Assembly: GCA_051746185.1 (NCBI GenBank)
Contig: JBNJEV010000009.1
Coordinates: 2,240-66,239, forward strand
Direction of reading: 5' to 3'
From: Bacteroidota bacterium
GTDB taxonomy: Bacteria; Bacteroidota; Bacteroidia; Bacteroidales; GCA-2748055
Length of the DNA: 64,000 nucleotides
Under the pieces are notes generated by a model, which saw nothing but the letters and a program-made list of their open reading frames with translations, was not told where the DNA came from and made no database searches. Position 1 is the first letter of the stretch. Every line of letters starts with the position of its first letter. Both the position numbers and the translations under genes were made by a program. Positions 18,905 to 29,376 of the stretch are shown piece after piece.

Positions 18905-21493
18905 TCAACGGACCCGCAAACTGGTTGAAAGCAGGGCCGCTTCGGAGGAAGAGGGGCCTACCAGGATATCGAACCAGCCTGGCTCCACGATATAATCCCC
19001 CTGCTCCACATCATAATAGGCCAGTTCATCCGGACCCAGGGTCATGGTAACCGTAACGGTTCCTCCTGCTTCGATCCACACCCTTTCGAATCCGCGCAGG
19101 TCTTTCAGGGGTCTTTTCACCTCCGATTCCACGTCCCTGATATACAGCTGGACCACTTCTTCTCCACCCGTTTCACCCGTATTGGTCACATCCACACTGA
19201 CTGTGACCTCCCCGTTCCGGGGGATCTCATCATCGTCCAGGATCAGGTTTTCATAAAGAAAATCGGTATAGCTCAGACCATAGCCAAAGGGGTACAGCAC
19301 CTCATCCCCGAAATACCTGTAGGTCTTCCCTTCCATATTGTAATCCTCAAAACCGGGAAGGTCATCCACCGATTGATAGAAGGTAACCGGCAGTCTCCCG
19401 GCAGGATTGTAATCACCGAAGAGCACATCCGCAACAGCAGTACCTCCTGCTTCACCGGGGTACCATGCCTGGATGATCCCGTCAAGGTGCTCATTCTCCC
19501 AGTTGATGGAAAGGGTGGAACCGCTCATCAGAACCAGGGTCACCGGTTTGCCGGTGGCGGCCATGCGTCGTATGAGCTGCTGCTGGACATCCGGCAAATC
19601 CAGGGAGGTGCGGTCCCCTCCTTTGAAGCCTTCCAGTTCAAATCCTCTCATCTCCTCGCCTTCCAGGCGTGCGTTCAAACCCATCACCAGGATCACGTGA
19701 TCGGCCCATCCGGCAAGCTGAAGCGCTTCCCCCGTAAGATTCCTGTCCGGTTCCAGCCAGGTCAGATTGCAGCTGGCATCCCCTCCGCGGTGGTGCAGGA
19801 TCAATTTGATGGGATACGGCTGTCCGGCCTTCAGTTCTTTTTCCATCCGGCCCATTCCCCAGCGGTTACGAATGGTATCACCGTCAAAAATAAGCAGGGA
19901 GGACCTTCCCGCTGCACTGATGGAATGGACACCGCTTTTTTCGGGTACCAGAGTTCCGGTCCACTCCACACAGAATGTATCAGGGTTTAATCCCTCCACC
20001 GGAGGTTCCTGGTCAAACCAGTAAAAATCGATCAGGGCATCGGTTCTTTCGGCCACCGGCTCCCCTTCGCATTCCAGGTTGGAAAAATACCGGCCCCTGA
20101 GCCCCTGTTCCGACAGTTCATTGTCCGTATACAGGACCTCGCCGGGAACCGTAACCGGGTAGGGCATGTCCTGGTGATGAGGGGATCCGAGTGCATAACG
20201 CACTTCGGCCTGATCCCCCAGTTTTGATTTGATGCCCGCATACACACTGACCGGGTTCACCGGGAACCCGTTGTAGTTTCCGTACTGCACGGTCACATTA
20301 TCGGCATTGGGCCCGATCACCGCAACTTTCCGGAGATCCTTGCTCAGGGGCAGGGCATCCGATTCATTCTTCAGCAGAACCAGGGATTTCCTGGCCATTT
20401 CCAGCGCCACCAGCCTGTGGCCGGGACCGGAGACCAGGTCATAGGAATCATCTGACCATGGGACCATCTCATCGGGATCGAACATTCCCAGCTTCATCCT
20501 GGCAAGCATCAGCCGTTCCACCGATATATCGATCTGCTCTTCCGAGATCAGACCCTGGCCGACCGCCTCCACAAGTGCGGGATAGACACTGCCACAATTC
20601 AAATCGGTCCCCGAAAGGACTCCCAGCGCTGCTGCTTCCTCCCTGGTTTCGACCACATCGTGTCCGGAGTGAAAATCCCTGATGGCTCCGCAGTCCGAAA
20701 CAATATAACCATCGAATCCAAGCTCACCGCGCAGCAATTCCTCCTGCAGCCAGGTGCTTCCGCAGCAGGGTTCTCCCATATAGCGGTTGTATGCGCACAT
20801 GACCGAATAGACTTTTCCCTCTTCCACGGTTTTCCTGAATGCAGGCAGGTAGGTGTCCCGGAAATCCCTCTCACTGGTCACCGCATCAAACTCGTGCCTG
20901 AGGGGCTCGGGTCCGCTGTGGACCGCATAGTGTTTGGAAGTGGCCACTACCTTGAAATACCGGTCATGGTCCCCCTGCAATCCCCTGATGAACTGCACCC
21001 CCAGTTCACCGGTGAGATAGGGATCCTCTCCATAGGTTTCATGTCCCCGTCCCCAGCGGGGATCCCTGAATATGTTGATATTGGGCGACCAGAAGGTAAG
21101 TCCCTTGTACCGTCCCCTTTCGTGGCGGGAAATAAAATCATTGTATTTGGCCCTTGCCTCGGTGGAAGTGATCTCCGCCATCCGGAGCATCAAATCCCGG
21201 TCGAAAGTGGCAGCCATCCCGATGGCCTGGGGAAAGACGGTGGCCTTGCCGGCGCGGGCAACCCCGTGCAGGCACTCATTCCACCAGTCGTATTCGGGAA
21301 TGCCCAGGCGTTCAATGGCAGCTGCTGAATTGGTAAGCTGGCTCACCTTTTCTTCAAGGGTCATTCTGGATACCAGGTCCTCCGCCCTTTCCTCAAAATC
21401 CAGCCTGGTATTCTGGTAAGGGTATTCAACGGACGGTTTACAGGAGAACAATGCACCCATCAACAGGATGGGCAAAAATTTTGTGAGTTTCAT
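18905..21493 (-). CDS. GH3 beta-xylosidase/glucosidase with PA14 and Fn3-like domains, lipoprotein
   Basis: Lipobox LFSC, WWNECLHG, RDPRWGRGHETYGEDP, IVSDCGA, PA14 insert, YPFGYGLSY. Confidence 0.92.
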   Translation of the reverse strand: MKLTKFLPILLMGALFSCKPSVEYPYQNTRLDFEERAEDLVSRMTLEEKVSQLTNSAAAIERLGIPEYDWWNECLHGVARAGKATVFPQAIGMAATFDRDLMLRMAEITSTEARAKYNDFISRHERGRYKGLTFWSPNINIFRDPRWGRGHETYGEDPYLTGELGVQFIRGLQGDHDRYFKVVATSKHYAVHSGPEPLRHEFDAVTSERDFRDTYLPAFRKTVEEGKVYSVMCAYNRYMGEPCCGSTWLQEELLRGELGFDGYIVSDCGAIRDFHSGHDVVETREEAAALGVLSGTDLNCGSVYPALVEAVGQGLISEEQIDISVERLMLARMKLGMFDPDEMVPWSDDSYDLVSGPGHRLVALEMARKSLVLLKNESDALPLSKDLRKVAVIGPNADNVTVQYGNYNGFPVNPVSVYAGIKSKLGDQAEVRYALGSPHHQDMPYPVTVPGEVLYTDNELSEQGLRGRYFSNLECEGEPVAERTDALIDFYWFDQEPPVEGLNPDTFCVEWTGTLVPEKSGVHSISAAGRSSLLIFDGDTIRNRWGMGRMEKELKAGQPYPIKLILHHRGGDASCNLTWLEPDRNLTGEALQLAGWADHVILVMGLNARLEGEEMRGFELEGFKGGDRTSLDLPDVQQQLIRRMAATGKPVTLVLMSGSTLSINWENEHLDGIIQAWYPGEAGGTAVADVLFGDYNPAGRLPVTFYQSVDDLPGFEDYNMEGKTYRYFGDEVLYPFGYGLSYTDFLYENLILDDDEIPRNGEVTVSVDVTNTGETGGEEVVQLYIRDVESEVKRPLKDLRGFERVWIEAGGTVTVTMTLGPDELAYYDVEQGDYIVEPGWFDILVGPSSSEAALLSTSLRVR

Positions 21494-21574
21494 GGGTTGT
21501 TGGTTTAGTGGGTTCGTATCATGAACGGTTGCTGACAGGGATGTCTCCGGGAATCGTAAATATAAGAAATCGTT

Positions 21575-23533
21575 TCATTCCCGGGAAATCTTGATCACCC
21601 TTTCCTTATAGGTGATGGCCGTGTCATACAGTACAAGCAGGTAAGCTCCGTCTGCAAGCCGGGAAAGATCCAGAACCAGGGGACTGCCGGGATCCGTCAT
21701 CCGGTACACCTCCCGCCCCCTGAAATCGAACAGGGCAATCTCCTGCAGGGTGTTGTGGTTGAGCAGCTGCACATACAGTTTGTCGCTGAATGGATTCGGG
21801 CCAAGGAGATACAACCGGTCTGAAGGGATCTGCCGGACCACACTGGATGTGTTCAGCAGATCCTCGTCAGGATCGAACACCAGGTTGGCGACCAGACCGT
21901 TGATCTGTATGGTATAATCCTCGACAGGTTCGTTCTGTGACAGCCGCATTCTTTCCGTGGTACCATCGCTGTACACCACTTCCACGTCAAAGGGATTGGT
22001 GAAGAGCGGGGTATCCGGTGAACTGCCGGTCTGCTCCAGATGCAGGTAAAGTGAATCGCCCAGCTGATGCCAGAAAAGCTGGTACCGGGGAAAACCTTCT
22101 CCGTAATACCACTGCTGAAAGAAGCCTGAAAAATCGATCCCGCTTTCCGATTCGAGCAGTCTTTTGAAATCCTCCCCGGTGGCCACTCCGTTTCCGAATT
22201 GATGGAGGTAATTGCGGAGCACCCTGAAGAAAAGGTCATCCTCGTCAAGGATATACCGGATCATGTGCAGCAAAATGGCCCCTTTTTTGTAGCTGAGTCC
22301 GTAATCGAAGACCCGCCCGGGATTGTCAGCGTTTTCTTCCGGGACAAAGACCGATCCTGTGGTCTCTCCCAGGGCAATGGACATGGCATTGGACATCCAT
22401 CTGTCGGCGGCATCCTGTCCCAGGATCTGCCGGGCGGCGATATATTCCATATAGGAGGCAAAACCTTCATTGATCCATATGTCCTGCCAGTTCCCGCAGG
22501 TCACCAGGTTGCCGAACCACTGGTGGGCCAGCTCATGGGCCACAAGGAAGAAATCGAAATCCTGGATGGTGGTCATGGTCTGGTGTTCCATCCCTCCTCC
22601 CAGGGGTGCCATGACATGACCGTACTTTTCGCGCGAAAAGGGATAATCGGTCAGCAGCTCCGAATAGGTGCGGATCAGATTGCCGGTCTCCAGGATTCCC
22701 TCTTCCCAGTCGGCAAGCACTTTGTCCGAATCATACAGAAAGTTCTGCACCAGGACCGAATCGCCTGTCCGGGAAAGGGGTGCATAAAAGGAGTAGTCCC
22801 TGTAATCGGCCACCGAGAAAAAAAGGAGGTAATAGGCCATGGGATAGGTGGTCTTCCAGCTGAACACTTTTGTGTCCCCCTCCAGGTCTTCCACATCCTC
22901 CAGGATCCCGTTGGAGGCTGCCATCAGCTGATCATCGCACTCCAGGCGGGTGCGGACCGAATCGATTTTGTCTTCCAGCACCTGTTTGACGGGGATCCAG
23001 TCCTTGGCATTGAGAGGCTCCGAAAGGGTATAGGTAACCTGAAAACCGTACTGTCCGTCTCTGGCGGAATTGATCCCTGCAAAAAAGCCCCTGTCCCGGC
23101 CCGCCTCTCCCCCGTACCGGATCTTCACGGCAAATACCTCACCGGCCGACCGGGTCCTGTCAAGCGGCACAAACAGGGCCTGGTCCCTGTGCTCATAATC
23201 CGCGGTGTGAGAGAAATCAGGCAGGGAATCCCTGTCGGTGATATCGATCCGGCTGACCTGCAGCTGGTCCTGCAGTTCCAGCACCAGGGTGTCCATTGTT
23301 TGCAGGACTTCCATCAGGATCATGACTTCTCCCTCGATTTCCGTGCTCTGATTGGTCACCTGCAGATCGATCTCATAGTATTTGATGTCATAGCGGGAAA
23401 GCCACCTTTCATACAGTGGGTTCTCATAACCGGCGGCTCCACCGGGACGGAGAACACACGATGTCCGTGGCCGTGCAACCGAGAGTTGGGTCACCAGAGT
23501 GGCCAGCAGGAAATATATGGCAGTCCTGAGCAT
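21575..23533 (-). CDS. M1-family aminopeptidase with T9SS C-terminal domain
   Basis: GGMEH, HELAHQWFG, WINEGFA, YKKGA; C-terminal PNPF...GAYLL...KVIK-like sorting domain. Confidence 0.9.
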   Translation of the reverse strand: MLRTAIYFLLATLVTQLSVARPRTSCVLRPGGAAGYENPLYERWLSRYDIKYYEIDLQVTNQSTEIEGEVMILMEVLQTMDTLVLELQDQLQVSRIDITDRDSLPDFSHTADYEHRDQALFVPLDRTRSAGEVFAVKIRYGGEAGRDRGFFAGINSARDGQYGFQVTYTLSEPLNAKDWIPVKQVLEDKIDSVRTRLECDDQLMAASNGILEDVEDLEGDTKVFSWKTTYPMAYYLLFFSVADYRDYSFYAPLSRTGDSVLVQNFLYDSDKVLADWEEGILETGNLIRTYSELLTDYPFSREKYGHVMAPLGGGMEHQTMTTIQDFDFFLVAHELAHQWFGNLVTCGNWQDIWINEGFASYMEYIAARQILGQDAADRWMSNAMSIALGETTGSVFVPEENADNPGRVFDYGLSYKKGAILLHMIRYILDEDDLFFRVLRNYLHQFGNGVATGEDFKRLLESESGIDFSGFFQQWYYGEGFPRYQLFWHQLGDSLYLHLEQTGSSPDTPLFTNPFDVEVVYSDGTTERMRLSQNEPVEDYTIQINGLVANLVFDPDEDLLNTSSVVRQIPSDRLYLLGPNPFSDKLYVQLLNHNTLQEIALFDFRGREVYRMTDPGSPLVLDLSRLADGAYLLVLYDTAITYKERVIKISRE

Positions 23534-23534
23534 G

Positions 23535-24563
23535 CTAGCTGAACCGGAAAAGGGTCTGCGCGCTGTATTGCTCACCGGGTTTCAGCAGGGTGGACGGGAA
23601 TGCCAGCTGGTTGGGACTGTCGGGAAAATATTGAGTTTCCAGGCAGACAGCGGCATGTTTCCCGTAGTCGATCCCGTCTCTGCCCCGGATCCCTTTCAGG
23701 TAATTTGACGTGTAAAGCTGGATCCCCGGCAGGGTGGTAAGAACCTCCATTGTGCGTCCGGATTCCGGATCATGCAGGACCGCCACCCGGGTCAGTTCCC
23801 GTGATTCCATGGCAAGCACATAGTTGAGATCATATCCCGGTTCCACCTCTGCGATCCTTTCCCCGAGCGGTCTGGTCTGTCTGAAATCGAGCGGAGTGCC
23901 TTCCACCGTTGCAATTTTGCCCGTGGGAATGCTTTCCCCATCCAGTACCGTATACCGGTCAGCATCCAGTGTCAGTTCATGCCGGTGGATGGTCCCCCGG
24001 CAATTGTTCAGATTGAAATAGCTGTGGTTGGTCAGGTTCACATGGGTGGGCCGGTCGGTTTCCGCCCTGCAGTGCACACCCAGTTCATTCTGATCATTCA
24101 GTGTATAAAGCACTTCCGCGATTACATTTCCCGGATACCCTTCCTCGCCGTCCCCGCTATGATACTTCATTACCAGGCTGATCTGCTTCCCGGAAACATC
24201 CGTATGTGCCTTCCACATTTTTTTATCGAATCCCCTGAATCCCCCGTGGAGATGATTGGACCCTTCGTTGGCAGAAAGCCGGTAGGTCCTTCCCTCGATG
24301 GAAAATTTTGCACCTCCGATCCGGTTGCAGAACCGGCCGATCATGGCACCCAGATAGGGCTGGTCCCCCAGGTAACCGTCAAGCCGGTCAAATCCGAGGA
24401 CAACATTGCCGGGTTCATGGTCCCGGTCCGGCACGATCAGGTCCGTAATGATCCCCCCGTAATCGAGTACCCTCACTTCCATTTCCCTGTTATTTCTCAT
24501 GACATACCGGTGTACTTCACCCACAGAAGGGATGGTTCCGAAATGTTCCTTTTCAATGGTCAT
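23535..24563 (-). CDS. galM: Aldose 1-epimerase (galactose mutarotase)
   Basis: GRFCNRI, NHLHGG, EEGYPG, NLTNHSYFN, CLETQYFPD. Confidence 0.95.
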   Translation of the reverse strand: MTIEKEHFGTIPSVGEVHRYVMRNNREMEVRVLDYGGIITDLIVPDRDHEPGNVVLGFDRLDGYLGDQPYLGAMIGRFCNRIGGAKFSIEGRTYRLSANEGSNHLHGGFRGFDKKMWKAHTDVSGKQISLVMKYHSGDGEEGYPGNVIAEVLYTLNDQNELGVHCRAETDRPTHVNLTNHSYFNLNNCRGTIHRHELTLDADRYTVLDGESIPTGKIATVEGTPLDFRQTRPLGERIAEVEPGYDLNYVLAMESRELTRVAVLHDPESGRTMEVLTTLPGIQLYTSNYLKGIRGRDGIDYGKHAAVCLETQYFPDSPNQLAFPSTLLKPGEQYSAQTLFRFS

Positions 24564-24731
24564 ATTTTTTGAATGTTTTTTTCAGGAAATAAAGATAGAA
24601 ATTAAAATCATCACCTGCACCGACCGATATATTTTCCCGGAACACATAAACAGGAAAACCGAAGAGCTCTTTGCACAGGCGTAAACCGAAAAGCCTTTAA
24701 GAGAGTAGGTGTGATCAAACTCATTCAGAAA

Positions 24732-24908
24732 ATGGAACCAGCATTATTCACGAACACTTTTAAAGAGGTCCCCGTTCAGGAACAGCAGCGCCTCAATGGC
24801 GGGGTATTGCCCTTCCTTCTGGCGATCGGCGTGGTTGCGGTCACCGAGATCATCAGGGACTGGGATAATTTCAAGAACGGACTCACCGGAGAACCGGAAG
24901 AGAAATAA
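24732..24908 (+). CDS. Double-glycine-leader peptide 1 (class II bacteriocin-like precursor)
   Basis: MEPALFTNTFKEVPVQEQQRLNGG|VLPFLLAIGVVAVTEIIRDWDNFKNGLTGEPEEK; upstream of HlyD and C39 transporter. Confidence 0.85.
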   Translation: MEPALFTNTFKEVPVQEQQRLNGGVLPFLLAIGVVAVTEIIRDWDNFKNGLTGEPEEK

Positions 24909-24946
24909 TGTACAATGATCAATGTAATTTTATAATAATCAGAAAA

Positions 24947-25141
24947 ATGGAAAACACAACACTTTTCAGCACCCTGGATGCCGGACAGATGAGACAGGTC
25001 AACGGCGGCGGATTCGCCTACGATGTGGGCAGGGTACTCCGGTTTATCTCGATTGCCGGCCTTAACAATGGTCCCCTTACAGCATTGGCACTCGCTGACT
25101 GGGATGTTAATAAGGCCCTCAATGAAATGGAAAACAACTAG
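24947..25141 (+). CDS. Double-glycine-leader peptide 2 (class II bacteriocin-like precursor)
   Basis: MENTTLFSTLDAGQMRQVNGG|GFAYDVGRVLRFISIAGLNNGPLTALALADWDVNKALNEMENN; ATG preceded by an A-rich initiation region. Confidence 0.85.
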   Translation: MENTTLFSTLDAGQMRQVNGGGFAYDVGRVLRFISIAGLNNGPLTALALADWDVNKALNEMENN

Positions 25142-25150
25142 AATTATCAG

Positions 25151-25290
25151 GATTGTCTCATAAGGCTTTTTTGATTTTCTTACTGAGGGATGCTTTGTCG
25201 TAACGTGCTAATTGACTTCGTCAAAGATGCCAGGTTACTTCAAAAGCATCCCTCAGATGATGTCAACCAATCACTTTTGAGACAGGCTCT
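25151..25290. repeat. Nested palindromic element (MITE/REP-like or structured RNA)
   Basis: Outer IR TGTCTCATAAG (25154-25164) / CTTTTGAGACA (25274-25284), 10 of 11 match; inner perfect 14-bp IR CTGAGGGATGCTTT (25183-25196) / AAAGCATCCCTCAG (25243-25256); partial copy at 11.2 kb. Confidence 0.8.
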
Positions 25291-25321
25291 TTTTTACTAT
25301 TCTTAAATAATACCCGATGCG

Positions 25322-25444
25322 ATGAGAATCAAAAAACCACGCCGGCGGGACATCATTATCTTCATTGTAACCCTGGTGGTCTTCGGTGCCATCGTCACTT
25401 ACTGGGACCAGATCAAGGATTTCATTGCCGGCATTTTTGCCTGA
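25322..25444 (+). CDS. 40-aa single-TM peptide (candidate immunity/accessory peptide)
   Basis: Manual translation MRIKKPRRRDIIIFIVTLVVFGAIVTYWDQIKDFIAGIFA*; its TGA overlaps the HlyD ATG (TGATG); below the ORF-track size cutoff. Confidence 0.7.
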   Translation: MRIKKPRRRDIIIFIVTLVVFGAIVTYWDQIKDFIAGIFA

Positions 25445-26574
25445 TGGACCAGCTGGAGGACAGTACACTGGACCTGATCTACAGGCGAAGTGTCCGTTCC
25501 TTTCACCTGGGTTATGTGGTCATCCTGATGATCACCGGGTCCTTTGCGGCCCTGCCCCTGGTGAAAGTAGATGTGGTCACCACCACCGCCGGAATGATCA
25601 GACCCCTGAAAGAACCTGCCGGGATCCTTTCTCCCATTTCGGGGATCCTGGACAGTACCATCCTTGCCGGCAACATGGAGGTGCACGCGGGGGATACCCT
25701 GGCCTGGGTCAACAAAGACCGGGTTGAAACCGGGATCCGGGAATACTCCGCGCTGATTGTCCGGAACAGTGCACCCATTCAGGATATCAAAAGCATCCTC
25801 AACGGACAGGAGCCTGAAAGGACAGGAAGGTTCATCCAGTCCTACAGGAATCACATTTCATCCCTCACCTGCCTTCAGATCAGGAAGAGACTCCTGGGGA
25901 AAGCATATCATACCGCCACCGAATTATTCACTGCCGGGGTAATCCCCCTGCACGAATTTGAGCAGGCAGAAACAGACTACCGGTTGATCTGTGCAGAGAT
26001 CAACGATCTCGAACACCGGTACAGGAGCCAGCTGCAGGAAGAACTCTACCGGCTTGAACAGGAAAATACCGGATACCGGCGGGAGGTCAACCTGAACAGA
26101 TCCATGCTGCACAATTACTATATTGTGGCTCCCACCTCGGGCACCATTCACAATTGTCCGGGACTGACCGCCGGATCGGTGATCCATTCCGGCATGTCAC
26201 TGGGATCCGTTTCACCGGAAGGAAGCCTGGTGGCTGAATGTTTTCTCGATCCGGGCAGTATCCAGGGAGTCGGGAAAGGGACCAGGGTCCGCCTCCGGTT
26301 TAACGGATCAGGGTACGGTCGACAGGCCCATGTGGAAGCCAGGGTCGATCATATCGAAAAGGATGTGATCCTGAAAGACGGGGTACCGGTCTACCGCATC
26401 AGGAGCACCCTCGACTCCCCTTTCATTTCCCGGGATGGCGGAGAAAGAAAACCGGTGGTGAAAGGAATGACCTTCACCGCCAGTTTTGTCCTTTTCCGCC
26501 GGTCGCTCGCCTCCCTTCTCCTGGAAAAGGTGGCCCGCCGGCTGGATCCCGGGGCTTCAATACCCGAAAAATGA
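25444..26574 (+). CDS. HlyD-family membrane fusion protein
   Basis: N-terminal TM, LPLVKVDV...GMIRP, lipoyl-like halves (ILSPISG, IVAPTSGTI), coiled coil, KGMTFTA. Confidence 0.9.
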   Translation: MDQLEDSTLDLIYRRSVRSFHLGYVVILMITGSFAALPLVKVDVVTTTAGMIRPLKEPAGILSPISGILDSTILAGNMEVHAGDTLAWVNKDRVETGIREYSALIVRNSAPIQDIKSILNGQEPERTGRFIQSYRNHISSLTCLQIRKRLLGKAYHTATELFTAGVIPLHEFEQAETDYRLICAEINDLEHRYRSQLQEELYRLEQENTGYRREVNLNRSMLHNYYIVAPTSGTIHNCPGLTAGSVIHSGMSLGSVSPEGSLVAECFLDPGSIQGVGKGTRVRLRFNGSGYGRQAHVEARVDHIEKDVILKDGVPVYRIRSTLDSPFISRDGGERKPVVKGMTFTASFVLFRRSLASLLLEKVARRLDPGASIPEK

Positions 26575-28661
26575 GAAGGAACAGAAAAGTGGCAATCAGA
26601 CAGCGTGACTCGTCCGACTGCGGACCTGCATGTATCGCTTCTGTAATGGCCTATTACGGGATCAGGGCATCCGTGGCGAGGATCAGGCAAATCGCCGGGA
26701 CGGACAAACTGGGAACCTCCATGTGGGGATTGGTCAGGACCCTTGAAAAATTCGATTTTGAAGCAAAAGGGCTGAAAGGATCGGCAGAACATCTGGACAA
26801 GCTTCCCCTGCCGTTTATCGCCCATGTTGAACAGACCGGAGGAGAACATCATTATGTCTGCGTGTACGGGATCAACGGGAAGCACCTGAGGGTGATGGAT
26901 CCCGCAGAGGGAAAAATACGAAGATGGAGCCACGGGGACTTCAGAAGGAAATGGAGCGGTGCCGTGGTGGCCATGGTACGGCAGATTCAGGCTCAAATGT
27001 TCCGGGAAACCCCGACAGGTCGGAACAGGATCATTTCTCTTCTCAGGCCAGTCTGTAAACCGGTGCTCCAGGCCATCATAGCCGCTGTCATTTACACCCT
27101 GCTGGGACTGTCCACCTCACTGTATATTGGAAAACTCACCGATCATGTTTTTGTAACCCGGAATACGGGTCTGCTGAACCTGATGAGCATCACCATGATC
27201 CTGATCACCCTTGTGATGATCTATATGTTCGCCATCAGGAGCCTGCATGTACTGAAAACCGGGCAGGTGATCGATAACCAGCTAATCACCTCCTATTACC
27301 GCCACCTGTTCAGAATGCCCCAGCGATTCTTTGACGGCATGAAGACGGGAGAGATCATCTCCAGGATCAACGATGCCATTAAGATCAGGGGATTCATCAA
27401 TGATGCAGCCATAGGTATTCTGGTGAACTTTCTGATCCTTTTCTTCTCCTTCGGACTGATGTTCATCCTGTACTGGGAACTTGCCCTGATGATGCTCGCC
27501 ATCATCCCCCTCTACTCGGTCATTTACTACTGTTTCAACCGCAGGAACAAGAGGATCGAGCGAGAGGCCATGGAAAGGACGGCTTCCCTGGAAAGCCAGC
27601 TCGTGGAATCACTCGAGGCAACCTCACACATCAAACAGCACAACCTGGAAGGGATCGCTTTCAGAAAGACAGAAGGCAGACTGAACCGGCTGCTGGATAC
27701 CGGTTACACCTCGGGCATTAATTCCATCACCGCCATGGGAGCAACCGAGCTGGTCAGCCGTCTTTTCACCATCATCCTGCTGTGGGTGGGTTCTGGTTTT
27801 GTGATCAGCCAGTCCATTACCCCCGGCAAGTTGCTCACTTTCTATGCCCTGATCGGGTACTTCACCGGACCGGTGAGCGGACTCATCGGGGCCAACAAGG
27901 TCTATCAGAATGCCCTGATCGCCGCAGACCGGCTGTTCGAAATATTCCACCTGGAAGAGGAACAGGTTGCCGGCCGGCCATCTTTCCCCCGGGATGAATT
28001 CGGGGATATTGTATTCAATAATGTTTCCTTTGCTTACGGTTCCAGGGGAACCATATTCCGGAACCTGGACCTGACCATCCATGCCGGAAAAGTGACCGCT
28101 ATCACCGGCCCCAGCGGATCGGGAAAATCAACCATTGGCTCCCTGATCCAGCACCTGTATTTCCCGGATGAAGGAAGCATCACCATCAATGGATATAACA
28201 CCCGCTATTTTTCACTGGAGAGCATACGTTCGATGATCGGGATCGTTCCCCAGCAGATCAGCTTTCTGACCGGTTCCATTCTGGAGAACATTGCTCCCGG
28301 TCAGAAAAACCCCGATGTGAAAAGGACCCTTCACCTGCTGAAGGCGGTGGGACTGCTGCCCCTGATCGAATCGCTTCCCGGGGGACTGGAATCCGTGCTC
28401 ACCCGAAACGGGACCAATCTTTCAGGCGGAGAGAGGCAGCGGCTGGCGCTTGTCCGTGCCCTCTACAAAAGACCCTCCCTGCTGATCCTGGACGAAGCCA
28501 CTTCCTCCCTGGACCCGGTTTCGGAAGTGCATGTAAACAAATTGCTGCTGACCCTCAGGGAGTGTTCCCAGACCATCCTCCTGATCACCCATCACCAGAG
28601 AGAGGCTTCTCTGGCCGACGTTACTTTCTCTATGGACGGTTCATGCGCTTGTGTATCCTGA
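26571..28661 (+). CDS. Peptidase C39-containing ABC transporter (PCAT, bacteriocin-processing exporter)
   Basis: QRDSSDCGPAC catalytic Cys, HHYV His, MDP Asp; TM domain; Walker A GPSGSGKST, LSGGERQ, ILDEATS. Confidence 0.95.
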   Translation: MRRNRKVAIRQRDSSDCGPACIASVMAYYGIRASVARIRQIAGTDKLGTSMWGLVRTLEKFDFEAKGLKGSAEHLDKLPLPFIAHVEQTGGEHHYVCVYGINGKHLRVMDPAEGKIRRWSHGDFRRKWSGAVVAMVRQIQAQMFRETPTGRNRIISLLRPVCKPVLQAIIAAVIYTLLGLSTSLYIGKLTDHVFVTRNTGLLNLMSITMILITLVMIYMFAIRSLHVLKTGQVIDNQLITSYYRHLFRMPQRFFDGMKTGEIISRINDAIKIRGFINDAAIGILVNFLILFFSFGLMFILYWELALMMLAIIPLYSVIYYCFNRRNKRIEREAMERTASLESQLVESLEATSHIKQHNLEGIAFRKTEGRLNRLLDTGYTSGINSITAMGATELVSRLFTIILLWVGSGFVISQSITPGKLLTFYALIGYFTGPVSGLIGANKVYQNALIAADRLFEIFHLEEEQVAGRPSFPRDEFGDIVFNNVSFAYGSRGTIFRNLDLTIHAGKVTAITGPSGSGKSTIGSLIQHLYFPDEGSITINGYNTRYFSLESIRSMIGIVPQQISFLTGSILENIAPGQKNPDVKRTLHLLKAVGLLPLIESLPGGLESVLTRNGTNLSGGERQRLALVRALYKRPSLLILDEATSSLDPVSEVHVNKLLLTLRECSQTILLITHHQREASLADVTFSMDGSCACVS

Positions 28662-28802
28662 AAAGAGCCATGTTGATCCTCAATTTTCCCGTTTTTGCCA
28701 AAATAATTTTCAACAACCGCTTTTTCATGGGAGATAAACAATAAATTTATGCCCGATTGAACTATCGGGATGAGACTATTGTTTACCCAAAAACTAAATA
28801 CT

Positions 28803-29360
28803 ATGAAAAGAATCACCGCCATTATTTTTCTTGCCATCTTCTCCATCCCCCTCATCAGGGCACAGGAGAGCATGTTCACCATCGACGACCAGGTGTTGAA
28901 CCTGGGGATCGGGATCGGTTCGGTTTATGCTTTCGGATCCTATTACACCACCACCGTCCCCCCCTTATCCATCTCTTTTGAGAAAGCGGTCGTGGATGAC
29001 ATTTTGGAGGAAGGAGTGATCGGCGTGGGAGCCTATGCGGGGTTTACATCTTACAGGTGGACCTACTTTACTGCCGATTATGGCTATAAATATTCCAACA
29101 TTATCCTGGGGGCCCGGGGAAATTTCCACTATCCCCTGGTCGACAGGCTGGATACTTATGTAGGTGTGCTCCTGGGATACAACATCTCCATTTCCAGCAC
29201 CTGGGGAACCTGGGGCGGGGAAACATCCCCGGATTCAGGGGGCATCGCCTTTGCCGGATATCTGGGAGGCCGCTACTATTTCTCAGACCAGTTTTCCGCA
29301 TTTGCCGAACTGGGATACGGGATCTCATACCTGACACTGGGAGTGGGGATCAAGCTGTAG
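28803..29360 (+). CDS. Small outer-membrane beta-barrel protein
   Basis: Signal peptide, Gly/Tyr-rich alternating strands, C-terminal GRYYF...ELGYG...GVGIKL. Confidence 0.8.
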   Translation: MKRITAIIFLAIFSIPLIRAQESMFTIDDQVLNLGIGIGSVYAFGSYYTTTVPPLSISFEKAVVDDILEEGVIGVGAYAGFTSYRWTYFTADYGYKYSNIILGARGNFHYPLVDRLDTYVGVLLGYNISISSTWGTWGGETSPDSGGIAFAGYLGGRYYFSDQFSAFAELGYGISYLTLGVGIKL

Positions 29361-29376
29361 GCTTCCGCAGCCCATT

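Follow-up and report, generated by a model that had tools for sequence, protein, structure and literature searches.

A 40-residue membrane protein encoded between the peptide and exporter genes of a two-peptide bacteriocin-type locus in Bacteroidales: a candidate immunity protein resembling one of the two peptides

What is the role of a short membrane-protein gene wedged between the precursor genes and the export genes of a two-peptide bacteriocin-type locus? The question is raised by a stretch of 64,000 nucleotides (the window, throughout this text) from contig JBNJEV010000009.1 of a Bacteroidales metagenome-assembled genome (MAG; assembly GCA_051746185.1). There, a small open reading frame (ORF) lies between two adjacent genes for precursors with double-glycine (GG) leaders, termed peptide 1 and peptide 2, and the genes of a HlyD-family adaptor and a peptidase-C39 ATP-binding cassette (ABC) exporter. 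Two adjacent GG precursors, a C39-ABC exporter and an accessory protein together form the gene set of a class IIb-type locus. The most likely reading, which we hold with roughly even confidence, is that of an immunity protein of the inner membrane that descends from a subunit of the toxin. It was rated highest because the gene occupies the slot after the peptides, remains beside them when the pump is elsewhere, is replaced by a CPBP gene in some loci and occurs as orphan copies. All genes of the cluster, from peptide 1 through the ABC exporter, point one way, and its features are as follows.

24676..24711, + strand: DUF805b RNA motif (Rfam RF02914), part of the leader immediately 5' of the peptide-1 gene
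24732..24908, + strand: precursor of peptide 1, 58 residues, ATG at 24732; double-glycine leader ending NGG, hydrophobic helix rich in small residues, then DWDNFKNGLTGEPEEK
24947..25141, + strand: precursor of peptide 2, 64 residues, ATG at 24947; double-glycine leader, core beginning GFAYDVGRVLRF
25150..25300, no strand assigned: long palindromic element in the spacer that separates the small ORF from peptide 2; one copy of a repeat dispersed in this genome
25322..25444, + strand: small ORF, 40 residues; N-tail MRIKKPRRRD, one transmembrane helix, then WDQIKDFIAGIFA
25444..26574, + strand: periplasmic adaptor of the HlyD family (accessory protein), itself bearing a transmembrane segment at the N-terminus; PF13437, E = 2.8e-9
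26571..28661, + strand: peptidase-C39 ABC exporter of the peptide cleavage/export type; Peptidase_C39 2.2e-32, ABC_membrane 9.6e-46, ABC_tran 4.8e-29

The small ORF is a real, conserved and selected gene. It starts with ATG at 25322 and comprises 40 codons followed by TGA at 25442–25444, the A of the stop being shared with the hlyD start codon at 25444 (TGATG). The first-pass annotation of the window had claimed this ORF, its coupling overlap with hlyD and its lack of a GG leader, and coordinates and translation were exactly as given there. It had also proposed to look for the ORF in homologous loci, to determine the ratio of nonsynonymous to synonymous substitution rates (dN/dS) and to follow the motif WDxxK, and each of these checks spoke for the gene. 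A search for relatives with HlyD yielded 15 full-length loci of the same genus (41–59% HlyD identity), all 15 of which carry an ORF for 40 residues directly upstream of hlyD, 13 with the TGATG overlap. Five columns (M1, K5, W28, D29 and K32) are invariant in these 15 sequences. The median dN/dS of the less saturated pairs of genus sequences was 0.23, indicating purifying selection, and the corresponding polymorphism ratio (pN/pS) among 22 genus sequences was 0.36 in the frame of the ORF versus 0.89 and 1.44 in the other two frames. Both synonymous codons were used at the invariant positions D29 (GAT 16, GAC 6) and K32 (AAG 11, AAA 11). The motif WDxxK was retained in 78 of the 82 distinct small proteins collected from loci.

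With a profile of the 15 sequences, a single copy was recovered from each of 23 of the 49 genus genomes. Outside the genus, six genomes belonging to other families of the order contain copies (E ≤ 1.6e-5), and a copy turned up in one of 400 other genomes sampled across the phylum. Among 1.84 billion representative proteins there were 47 matches at E ≤ 1e-3, 43 of them 33–63 residues long and none a fusion of HlyD length. A derivation of the small ORF from a detached N-terminus of HlyD was discarded, given that no such fusion occurs among the 47 matches and HlyD has a transmembrane segment of its own. Comparison with Pfam at E ≤ 0.1 matched no family, PF02517 and DUF1656 included, and the lone NCBIfam match, the quorum peptide NprX (E = 0.094; 12.4 bits versus a cut-off of 75), was noise. 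Gene callers had already called the small ORF elsewhere, in two clusters of which one is labelled 'hypothetical protein', and the ESM Atlas contains the protein letter for letter, its matches being clusters without names at scores below 0.8; word-index protein searches reached near-identical sequences only. As judged from these comparisons, the small ORF founds an undescribed family of 33–63-residue proteins without a model in Pfam or NCBIfam. Defects were seen in a few loci. The small ORF ends early, after 31 codons, in L017/L067 (genome G014), and in L015 (genome G025) the peptide-1 gene runs out of frame past the leader, with peptide 2, small ORF and hlyD unimpaired. As these two genomes are incomplete MAGs, assembly errors may be the cause.

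The members of this family are built alike, with a Lys/Arg-rich N-tail, one hydrophobic helix and then F-x-x-W-D-x-[IVL]-K-x-F-I-x-x-[IL]-F. The cationic N-tail and single transmembrane helix noticed at first reading were thus present in the window ORF and across the family. The N-tail is net positive in 81 of 81 small proteins (mean charge +3.7), and for the residues that follow the Trp the mean is −0.7, from which an orientation with the N-terminus inside and the C-terminus outside is predicted by the positive-inside rule. An AlphaFold2 model based on a 42-sequence alignment showed a helix at 8–26, a one-residue break and a second helix at 28–39 starting from W28, with a predicted local distance difference test score (pLDDT) of 91. 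The hydrophobic stretch is uninterrupted over 17–18 residues, and the 13 C-terminal residues are the best-conserved part. Both variants with a D-to-N change (WNEIE and WNSIE) are also both variants with a K-to-E change; the coupling (2/2) suggests an Asp-Lys pair at i/i+3 within the helix. The small protein is accordingly modelled in the membrane that the toxin would attack, with its conserved part predicted on the outer face.

These traits also bear on the view that the product is released, either as a third, leaderless toxin component or as a precursor that frees a C-terminal signal peptide of 12–13 residues (WDxxKxFIxxIF). The strong conservation at the C-terminus would suit such a peptide, as would a tail of nearly constant length (13 residues in 56/81 and 12 in 13/81 small proteins) and an N-terminus that resembles the n-region and h-region of a signal peptide. 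We regard this view as highly improbable, however. The protein has no GG leader for the C39 exporter, there is no small-x-small cleavage site before W28 (the residues are V-T-Y), and the 17–18-residue hydrophobic stretch together with the positive N-tail of all 81 proteins fits a stable anchor. Copies in genomes without the peptides or a nearby sensor gene fit a toxin subunit poorly, and the NprX similarity carries no weight. Leaderless bacteriocins are soluble, cationic, amphipathic and released, whereas here a hydrophobic segment and a charge confined to the N-tail fit a membrane anchor. The third-subunit idea, also raised in the first-pass annotation, found no support.

How, then, is the small protein related to the two peptides? 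The annotation had pointed to a WDxxK motif common to it and to both secreted cores (in the window, DWDNFK for peptide 1, DWDVNK for peptide 2 and YWDQIK for the small protein). For peptide 1 the observation stood. Its GG and its tail D-W-D-N-F-x-N-G-L-x-G-x-P-E are invariant in the 14 genus sequences found via hlyD, and an AlphaFold2 model shows one helix (25–51, pLDDT 84) running through WDNFK. The loci found via the small ORF contain the tail variants NWDDFKAG, DWDNFERG, DWDNFKRG and DWDNFKAG. No stretch of the small-protein alignments was conserved enough for collecting loci, and the two scans made for this purpose with the peptide-1 alignment used the pattern DWDNFKN, so that peptide-1 motif counts from these scans are true by construction. 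Peptide 2, on the other hand, has WDxxK in only two of 85 distinct sequences. Its conserved part is the N-terminal GGFAYDVGRxxRF, with GGGFA-D-GR--RF invariant in 15 sequences, and a profile comparison of the small family with peptide-2 cores in hhalign gave P = 0.84, i.e. no similarity. A three-way motif was ruled out on these two results, and on comparison with its homologs the WDxxK of peptide 2 in the window is a chance occurrence.

Resemblance to peptide 1 was seen at the level of whole profiles. With a hidden Markov model (HMM) of the peptide-1 core, 30 of 126 small proteins scored P ≤ 1e-3, compared to 3/126 reversed and 4/2520 shuffled sequences, and 11 scored P ≤ 1e-4, compared to no reversed and one shuffled sequence; the small-protein sequences are interrelated and these counts are therefore not independent trials. 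The small family aligned with the peptide-1 cores in hhalign at E = 0.0017 when small alignments were used and at P = 4.7e-4 (probability 33%) with larger alignments from which the L084 intermediate described below was left out, with transmembrane helix and WDxxK in register. The small protein of the window gave P = 1.2e-3 with the peptide-1-core HMM, 2.8e-4 with the HMM of full-length peptide 1 and 2.6e-23 with that of the small family. It contains W-D-x-x-K-x-x-I-x-G only and not the extended tail DWDNFKNGLxGxPE.

Three proteins combine the anchor and transmembrane type of the small protein with the extended tail of peptide 1 (DWDNFKNGLMGKPP, NWENFSRGFSGNPE, DWDQFKAGFLGM). In a Roseivirgaceae MAG (locus L098, genome G840) the genes follow the order hlyD, ABC, peptide 1, peptide 2 and a leaderless ORF of 47 residues, which begins with a short basic segment, continues as a helix rich in Ile and Phe and closes with SDWDNFKNGLMGKPPVE; its scores were 1e-16 with the peptide-1 core and 1.2e-4 with the small family. 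A second protein of this type, 79% identical and likewise leaderless, occurs elsewhere. The L185 protein from a Chryseolinea MAG (G843) is encoded by a 69-residue ORF located 258 nt upstream of hlyD and consists of KIKRR, a transmembrane helix and TNWENFSRGFSGNPE (9.7e-11 against the peptide-1 core, 5.6e-7 against the small family). Both L098 and L185 keep the full peptide-1 tail. In L084, the slot after peptide 2 holds an ORF of 37 residues that starts with MKIKR and ends with NDWDQFKAGFLGM (2.1e-8 and 2.5e-9, respectively). Since all three match both profiles, we read them as a sign of common descent. The claim of a leaderless, membrane-retained look-alike was thus supported for peptide 1, on the basis of HMM scores above the controls, the hhalign comparison and the three intermediates, but not for peptide 2.

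The genomic company of the small ORF was examined in 96 distinct loci, defined by unique peptide-2 sequences. The gene after peptide 2 was distributed as follows.

85/96 loci: small ORF
4/96 loci: CPBP/Rce1-like membrane protein
1/96 loci: leaderless peptide-1 paralogue
2/96 loci: nothing, in one case really a small ORF cut by the contig end
4/96 loci: contig too short to tell

The position next to the peptides is maintained even when the exporter is elsewhere, as would be expected of an immunity gene. In L098 and in genome G826 the exporter lies upstream and the small protein, in L098 the leaderless peptide-1-like form, still follows the peptides; in G137 the trio stands between CPBP genes on a 10.8-kb contig without an exporter, and in L089/L159, where the small ORF again accompanies the peptides, hlyD is absent over 1.9 kb. 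The CPBP/Rce1-like protein of the slot matches PF02517 at 1.6e-17. It marks a locus sub-type in which peptide 1 and a divergent peptide 2 (GGxFAYDxGFxLRE...) are followed by a CPBP/Rce1-like protein of about 286 residues instead of the small ORF. CPBP-linked loci are L087, L150, L154, L156 and L169, as well as L181 (G826) and L060 (G137), and several CPBP genes surround the peptides in the latter two genomes. In G826 the order is peptides, CPBP, small ORF, and the cluster contains further GG-leader peptides and two more CPBP genes.

Copies also occur in genomes free of the toxin genes, again as would be expected of an immunity gene. G145 (98% complete) and G272 harbour the small ORF alone; neither has a peptide-1 match, and G145 has no peptide-2 match either. 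The two small ORFs are 93% identical between two species, while their flanks do not align without gaps. A third genome, G382, has no peptide match but a copy of the small ORF 266 nt from a contig end (L063). At 267–1009 of this locus the copy, a small-family ORF with the variant motif WNSIE, adjoins a gene with a Zeta-toxin domain (PF06414, 9.5e-13), and an ORF farther downstream is presumably DNA-methylase-like, judged by eye only. For the proposed immunity function as a whole, the genomic context spoke in favour, with the slot after two structural genes, linkage without the exporter, the CPBP swap in four loci and the orphans. A motif shared with both cores found no support.

A mechanism can be proposed from sequence and predicted topology. 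The small protein would span the inner membrane once, with the cationic N-terminus in the cytoplasm and a short amphipathic helix, opened by W-D-x-x-K, at the periplasmic face. The GG leader of the peptide-1 core would have been replaced by a positively charged membrane anchor; without a leader the protein would not be exportable and would stay in the membrane of the producer, matching incoming peptide 1 in depth and orientation. From this position it could interfere with the assembly or docking of peptide 1, by pairing with it or by taking its place. Topology, immunity function and interference are in this sense put forward as a proposal. A more specific scenario, toxin domestication, is possible and offered tentatively: a leaderless, anchored duplicate of peptide 1 would have become a dominant-negative partner that blocks lethal assembly via the W-D-x-x-K helix, either pairing with peptide 1 or replacing it at its partner or receptor. 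A leaderless copy of the peptide-1 core would have gained a cationic anchor and a bulkier transmembrane helix, and the L098, L185 and L084 proteins would be snapshots of this path. Complex predictions of peptide-1 core, peptide-2 core and small protein scored 0.13 and 0.10 versus a mark of 0.32; run without controls, they are uninformative either way.

Several points weigh against immunity by a relative of peptide 1. That peptides 1 and 2 are antibacterial is itself presumed, and the loci were mostly retrieved via the peptide-1 motif or the small ORF itself, so that the co-occurrence counts are biased. Further points concern the likeness. The hhalign probabilities are modest (15–33%) and rest mainly on a hydrophobic helix and a five-residue motif, and Trp is common at membrane interfaces. 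The transmembrane helix of the small protein is rich in aromatic and beta-branched residues: Gly, Ala and Ser account for 10% of it and aromatic residues for 20%, compared to 31% and 5% in peptide 1. The pattern [GAS]xxx[GAS] within the 18 residues before the Trp was found in 55 of 77 peptide-1 sequences versus 9 of 81 small proteins. Lacking such a small-xxx-small face, the small protein cannot simply replace peptide 1 in a helix-helix pair; given these compositions, the shared part would be the interface helix and not the packing face. The likeness might thus be convergent, with Trp-Asp-x-x-Lys as a generic cap at the membrane interface formed by a Trp anchor and an i/i+3 Asp-Lys pair. Convergence would agree with an identity limited to about 5–10 positions, with the differing transmembrane compositions and with the joint D-to-N and K-to-E changes, which fit a structural intrahelical pair and not a binding constraint. 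We nevertheless consider it somewhat unlikely, as three proteins that grade from one family into the other, encoded in or close to this slot, match both profiles, the reversed and shuffled controls scored far lower, and no such likeness extends to peptide 2.

The remaining counterpoints lie in the gene order. Where at least 700 nt of downstream sequence were available, hlyD followed the small ORF in 63 of 71 loci. Of 64 distinct junctions between these genes, 51 are overlaps, with a single shared base in 44 cases (TGATG 40, TAATG 4, four bases 5, sixteen bases 2). In the Chryseolinea MAG, the leaderless peptide-1-like ORF stands by hlyD with the peptide genes on another contig. The main rival explanation builds on this: the small protein may belong to the HlyD/C39-ABC exporter as an accessory subunit or help to assemble it, kept at a fixed ratio to HlyD by translational coupling and serving secretion. 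The stop/start overlap is the best argument for it, and there is precedent for short membrane-protein genes directly in front of genes for HlyD-type adaptors, e.g. AaeX/DUF1656, where the two genes likewise abut. The small protein differs from AaeX in having one transmembrane helix instead of two, in matching no Pfam family at E ≤ 0.1 and in occurring away from adaptor genes as well. An accessory role is unlikely in our assessment. The best counter-argument comes from exporters that lack it. At a locus of its own, G145 encodes an ABC exporter of 48% identity (HTH gene, hlyD, ABC; HTH, helix-turn-helix) and no small ORF precedes hlyD there, and a family profile found no canonical small ORF genome-wide in G842, which carries a CPBP-type locus, or in G840, both of which possess hlyD homologues. 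The small ORF also stays with the peptides when the exporter is upstream or elsewhere, fusions of HlyD length were absent from the 47 library matches, and the likeness to peptide 1 would be left unexplained. The case for immunity is softened on one further count, in that CPBP proteins are also reported to serve as processing enzymes or receptors (PMC9298176), which weakens the argument from the swapped slot.

Known systems offer partial parallels. As described in PMC2850506, operons of two-peptide bacteriocins contain an immunity gene along with the two structural genes and sometimes an ABC exporter and accessory protein too. The locus in the window resembles the class IIb bacteriocins of the lactococcin G type in its two GG precursors, the gene for a small membrane protein, the accessory/HlyD and C39-ABC genes and their common direction, and peptide 1 carries small-xxx-small motifs in 55 of 77 sequences. 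Class IIb operons are those of Gram-positive bacteria, whereas the present locus stems from a Gram-negative Bacteroidales MAG, and its peptides and small protein match no described family. The immunity protein of lactococcin G is much larger than the 40-residue candidate with one transmembrane helix, and the candidate differs in resembling one of the toxin peptides.

Microcin V is exported by HlyD and a C39-ABC protein and is accompanied by a small immunity protein (cvaABC-cvi). The window locus shares with this system and with mcbABCI of Moraxella both the mode of export and a small putative immunity gene beside the structural gene; it differs in having two structural peptides instead of one. 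The immunity proteins of these two systems have about 70–80 residues and are not known to resemble the toxin. The Moraxella system is, like that of microcin V, one for a leader-peptide bacteriocin (PMC2761928).

Members of the CPBP/Abi family (PF02517) have been reported to confer bacteriocin immunity, among other roles (Kjos 2010, as cited in PMC9298176). They occupy the slot after peptide 2 in 4/96 loci and stand alongside the small ORF in G826, but are multi-pass proteins of about 200–290 residues with protease motifs, and the small ORF does not match PF02517. A conceptual parallel is the antiholin S107 of phage lambda, according to PMC6116005 a near-copy of the holin S105 whose extra N-terminal positive charge fixes its topology and which inhibits by pairing. 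The small protein similarly places a cationic N-terminus on a look-alike of a putative toxin. S107 and S105 arise from one gene with dual starts two residues apart, whereas here separate genes encode distantly similar proteins whose pairing is hypothetical. Full-text searches of the literature outside subscription journals and supplements turned up no description of an immunity protein related to its own bacteriocin but leaderless.

No part of a bacteriocin locus is harder to predict than the immunity gene, and mining pipelines lean on a few dozen models; IIBacFinder, for instance, curated 29 immunity proteins (PMC12648112). The unannotated 40-residue family marks a widespread type of two-peptide locus in environmental Bacteroidales. 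Its evolutionary origin would be unusual and is testable. If the immunity function holds, a toxin subunit would have become its own antidote by exchanging an export leader for a membrane anchor. A rule for finding hidden immunity genes would follow, namely to seek leaderless look-alikes of the core peptide, and the locus would provide a minimal system for the assembly of two-peptide bacteriocins in membranes.

As to the neighbouring genes, the GG of the leader is found without exception in 14 sequences of peptide 1 and 15 of peptide 2, and the precursor genes are adjacent throughout the genus loci. Neither the two peptides nor the small ORF belong to a Pfam or NCBIfam family or matched a described bacteriocin family, and sequence searches of the PDB with profiles of all three returned nothing beyond one match of 8 residues (E = 0.02). 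HlyD matched TIGR01843 of NCBIfam at E = 3.9e-23, under the curated cut-off, and the best NCBIfam match of the ABC exporter was TIGR01193 (bacteriocin_ABC; 425 bits, under the cut-off of 523.85). The upstream neighbour of the window locus encodes 342 residues and runs in the other direction. Four distant loci have a gene for a small HTH protein (about 106–109 residues; weak HTH_11 match, E = 0.0034) just upstream of the peptides or hlyD; the window locus lacks this gene. Its positions are:

L098, 2591–2920: small HTH protein
L064, 5074–5403: small HTH protein
L180, 2695–3015: small HTH protein
L181, 1765–2091: small HTH protein

Some loci show decay. In L099 the leader of peptide 1 is truncated and the ABC gene is in pieces, and in G826 (L181, 300–1630) fragments of hlyD (269 residues) and ABC (138 residues) precede intact peptide genes.

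Scans for sigma-70 promoters and terminators gave results at chance level. The −7 consensus of Bacteroidetes (TANNTTTG) had 24 matches versus 17 expected, none of them in 19893–29376. Contigs from a salt-lake metatranscriptome matched the locus exactly at 24655–24960, 24655–24928 and 25439–25606, and at 24666–25143 with 16 differences; contigs from RNA libraries of two studies start at 24655. Peptide 1, peptide 2 and the start of hlyD are contained in contigs of four metatranscriptome runs, none of which covers 25322–25438 within the small ORF; as contigs from RNA libraries may include DNA, they prove no transcript structure.

The DUF805b motif, catalogued in Rfam as cis-regulatory, was detected about 20 nt upstream of the peptide-1 start in the window with 42.6 bits (gathering score 35.6; E = 1.8e-10). 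Of 20 other loci, nine likewise have it ahead of the peptide-1 gene at the gathering score (L002, L004, L005, L006, L007, L010, L012, L085 and L094). Several contigs from RNA libraries match just the 34-nt motif and have different flanks, so that DUF805b may be a shared leader element of such peptide operons. A literature search for DUF805b by name returned one paper on an alignment method only.

The spacer between peptide 2 and the small ORF measures 180 nt in the window, compared to 6–20 nt in most homologous loci. Its RNA (25150–25300) is predicted to fold into a long hairpin of −54.1 kcal/mol (z = −4.7). A role of this hairpin as locus-specific attenuator was rejected: the element is a dispersed repeat with 10 matches in the genome of the window, itself included, the other copies being 82–93% identical, and most homologous loci are without it. 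The library protein P0047 carries an N-terminal extension that is the translation of a similar repeat element, which suggests that the repeat also lies upstream of a small ORF in another locus.

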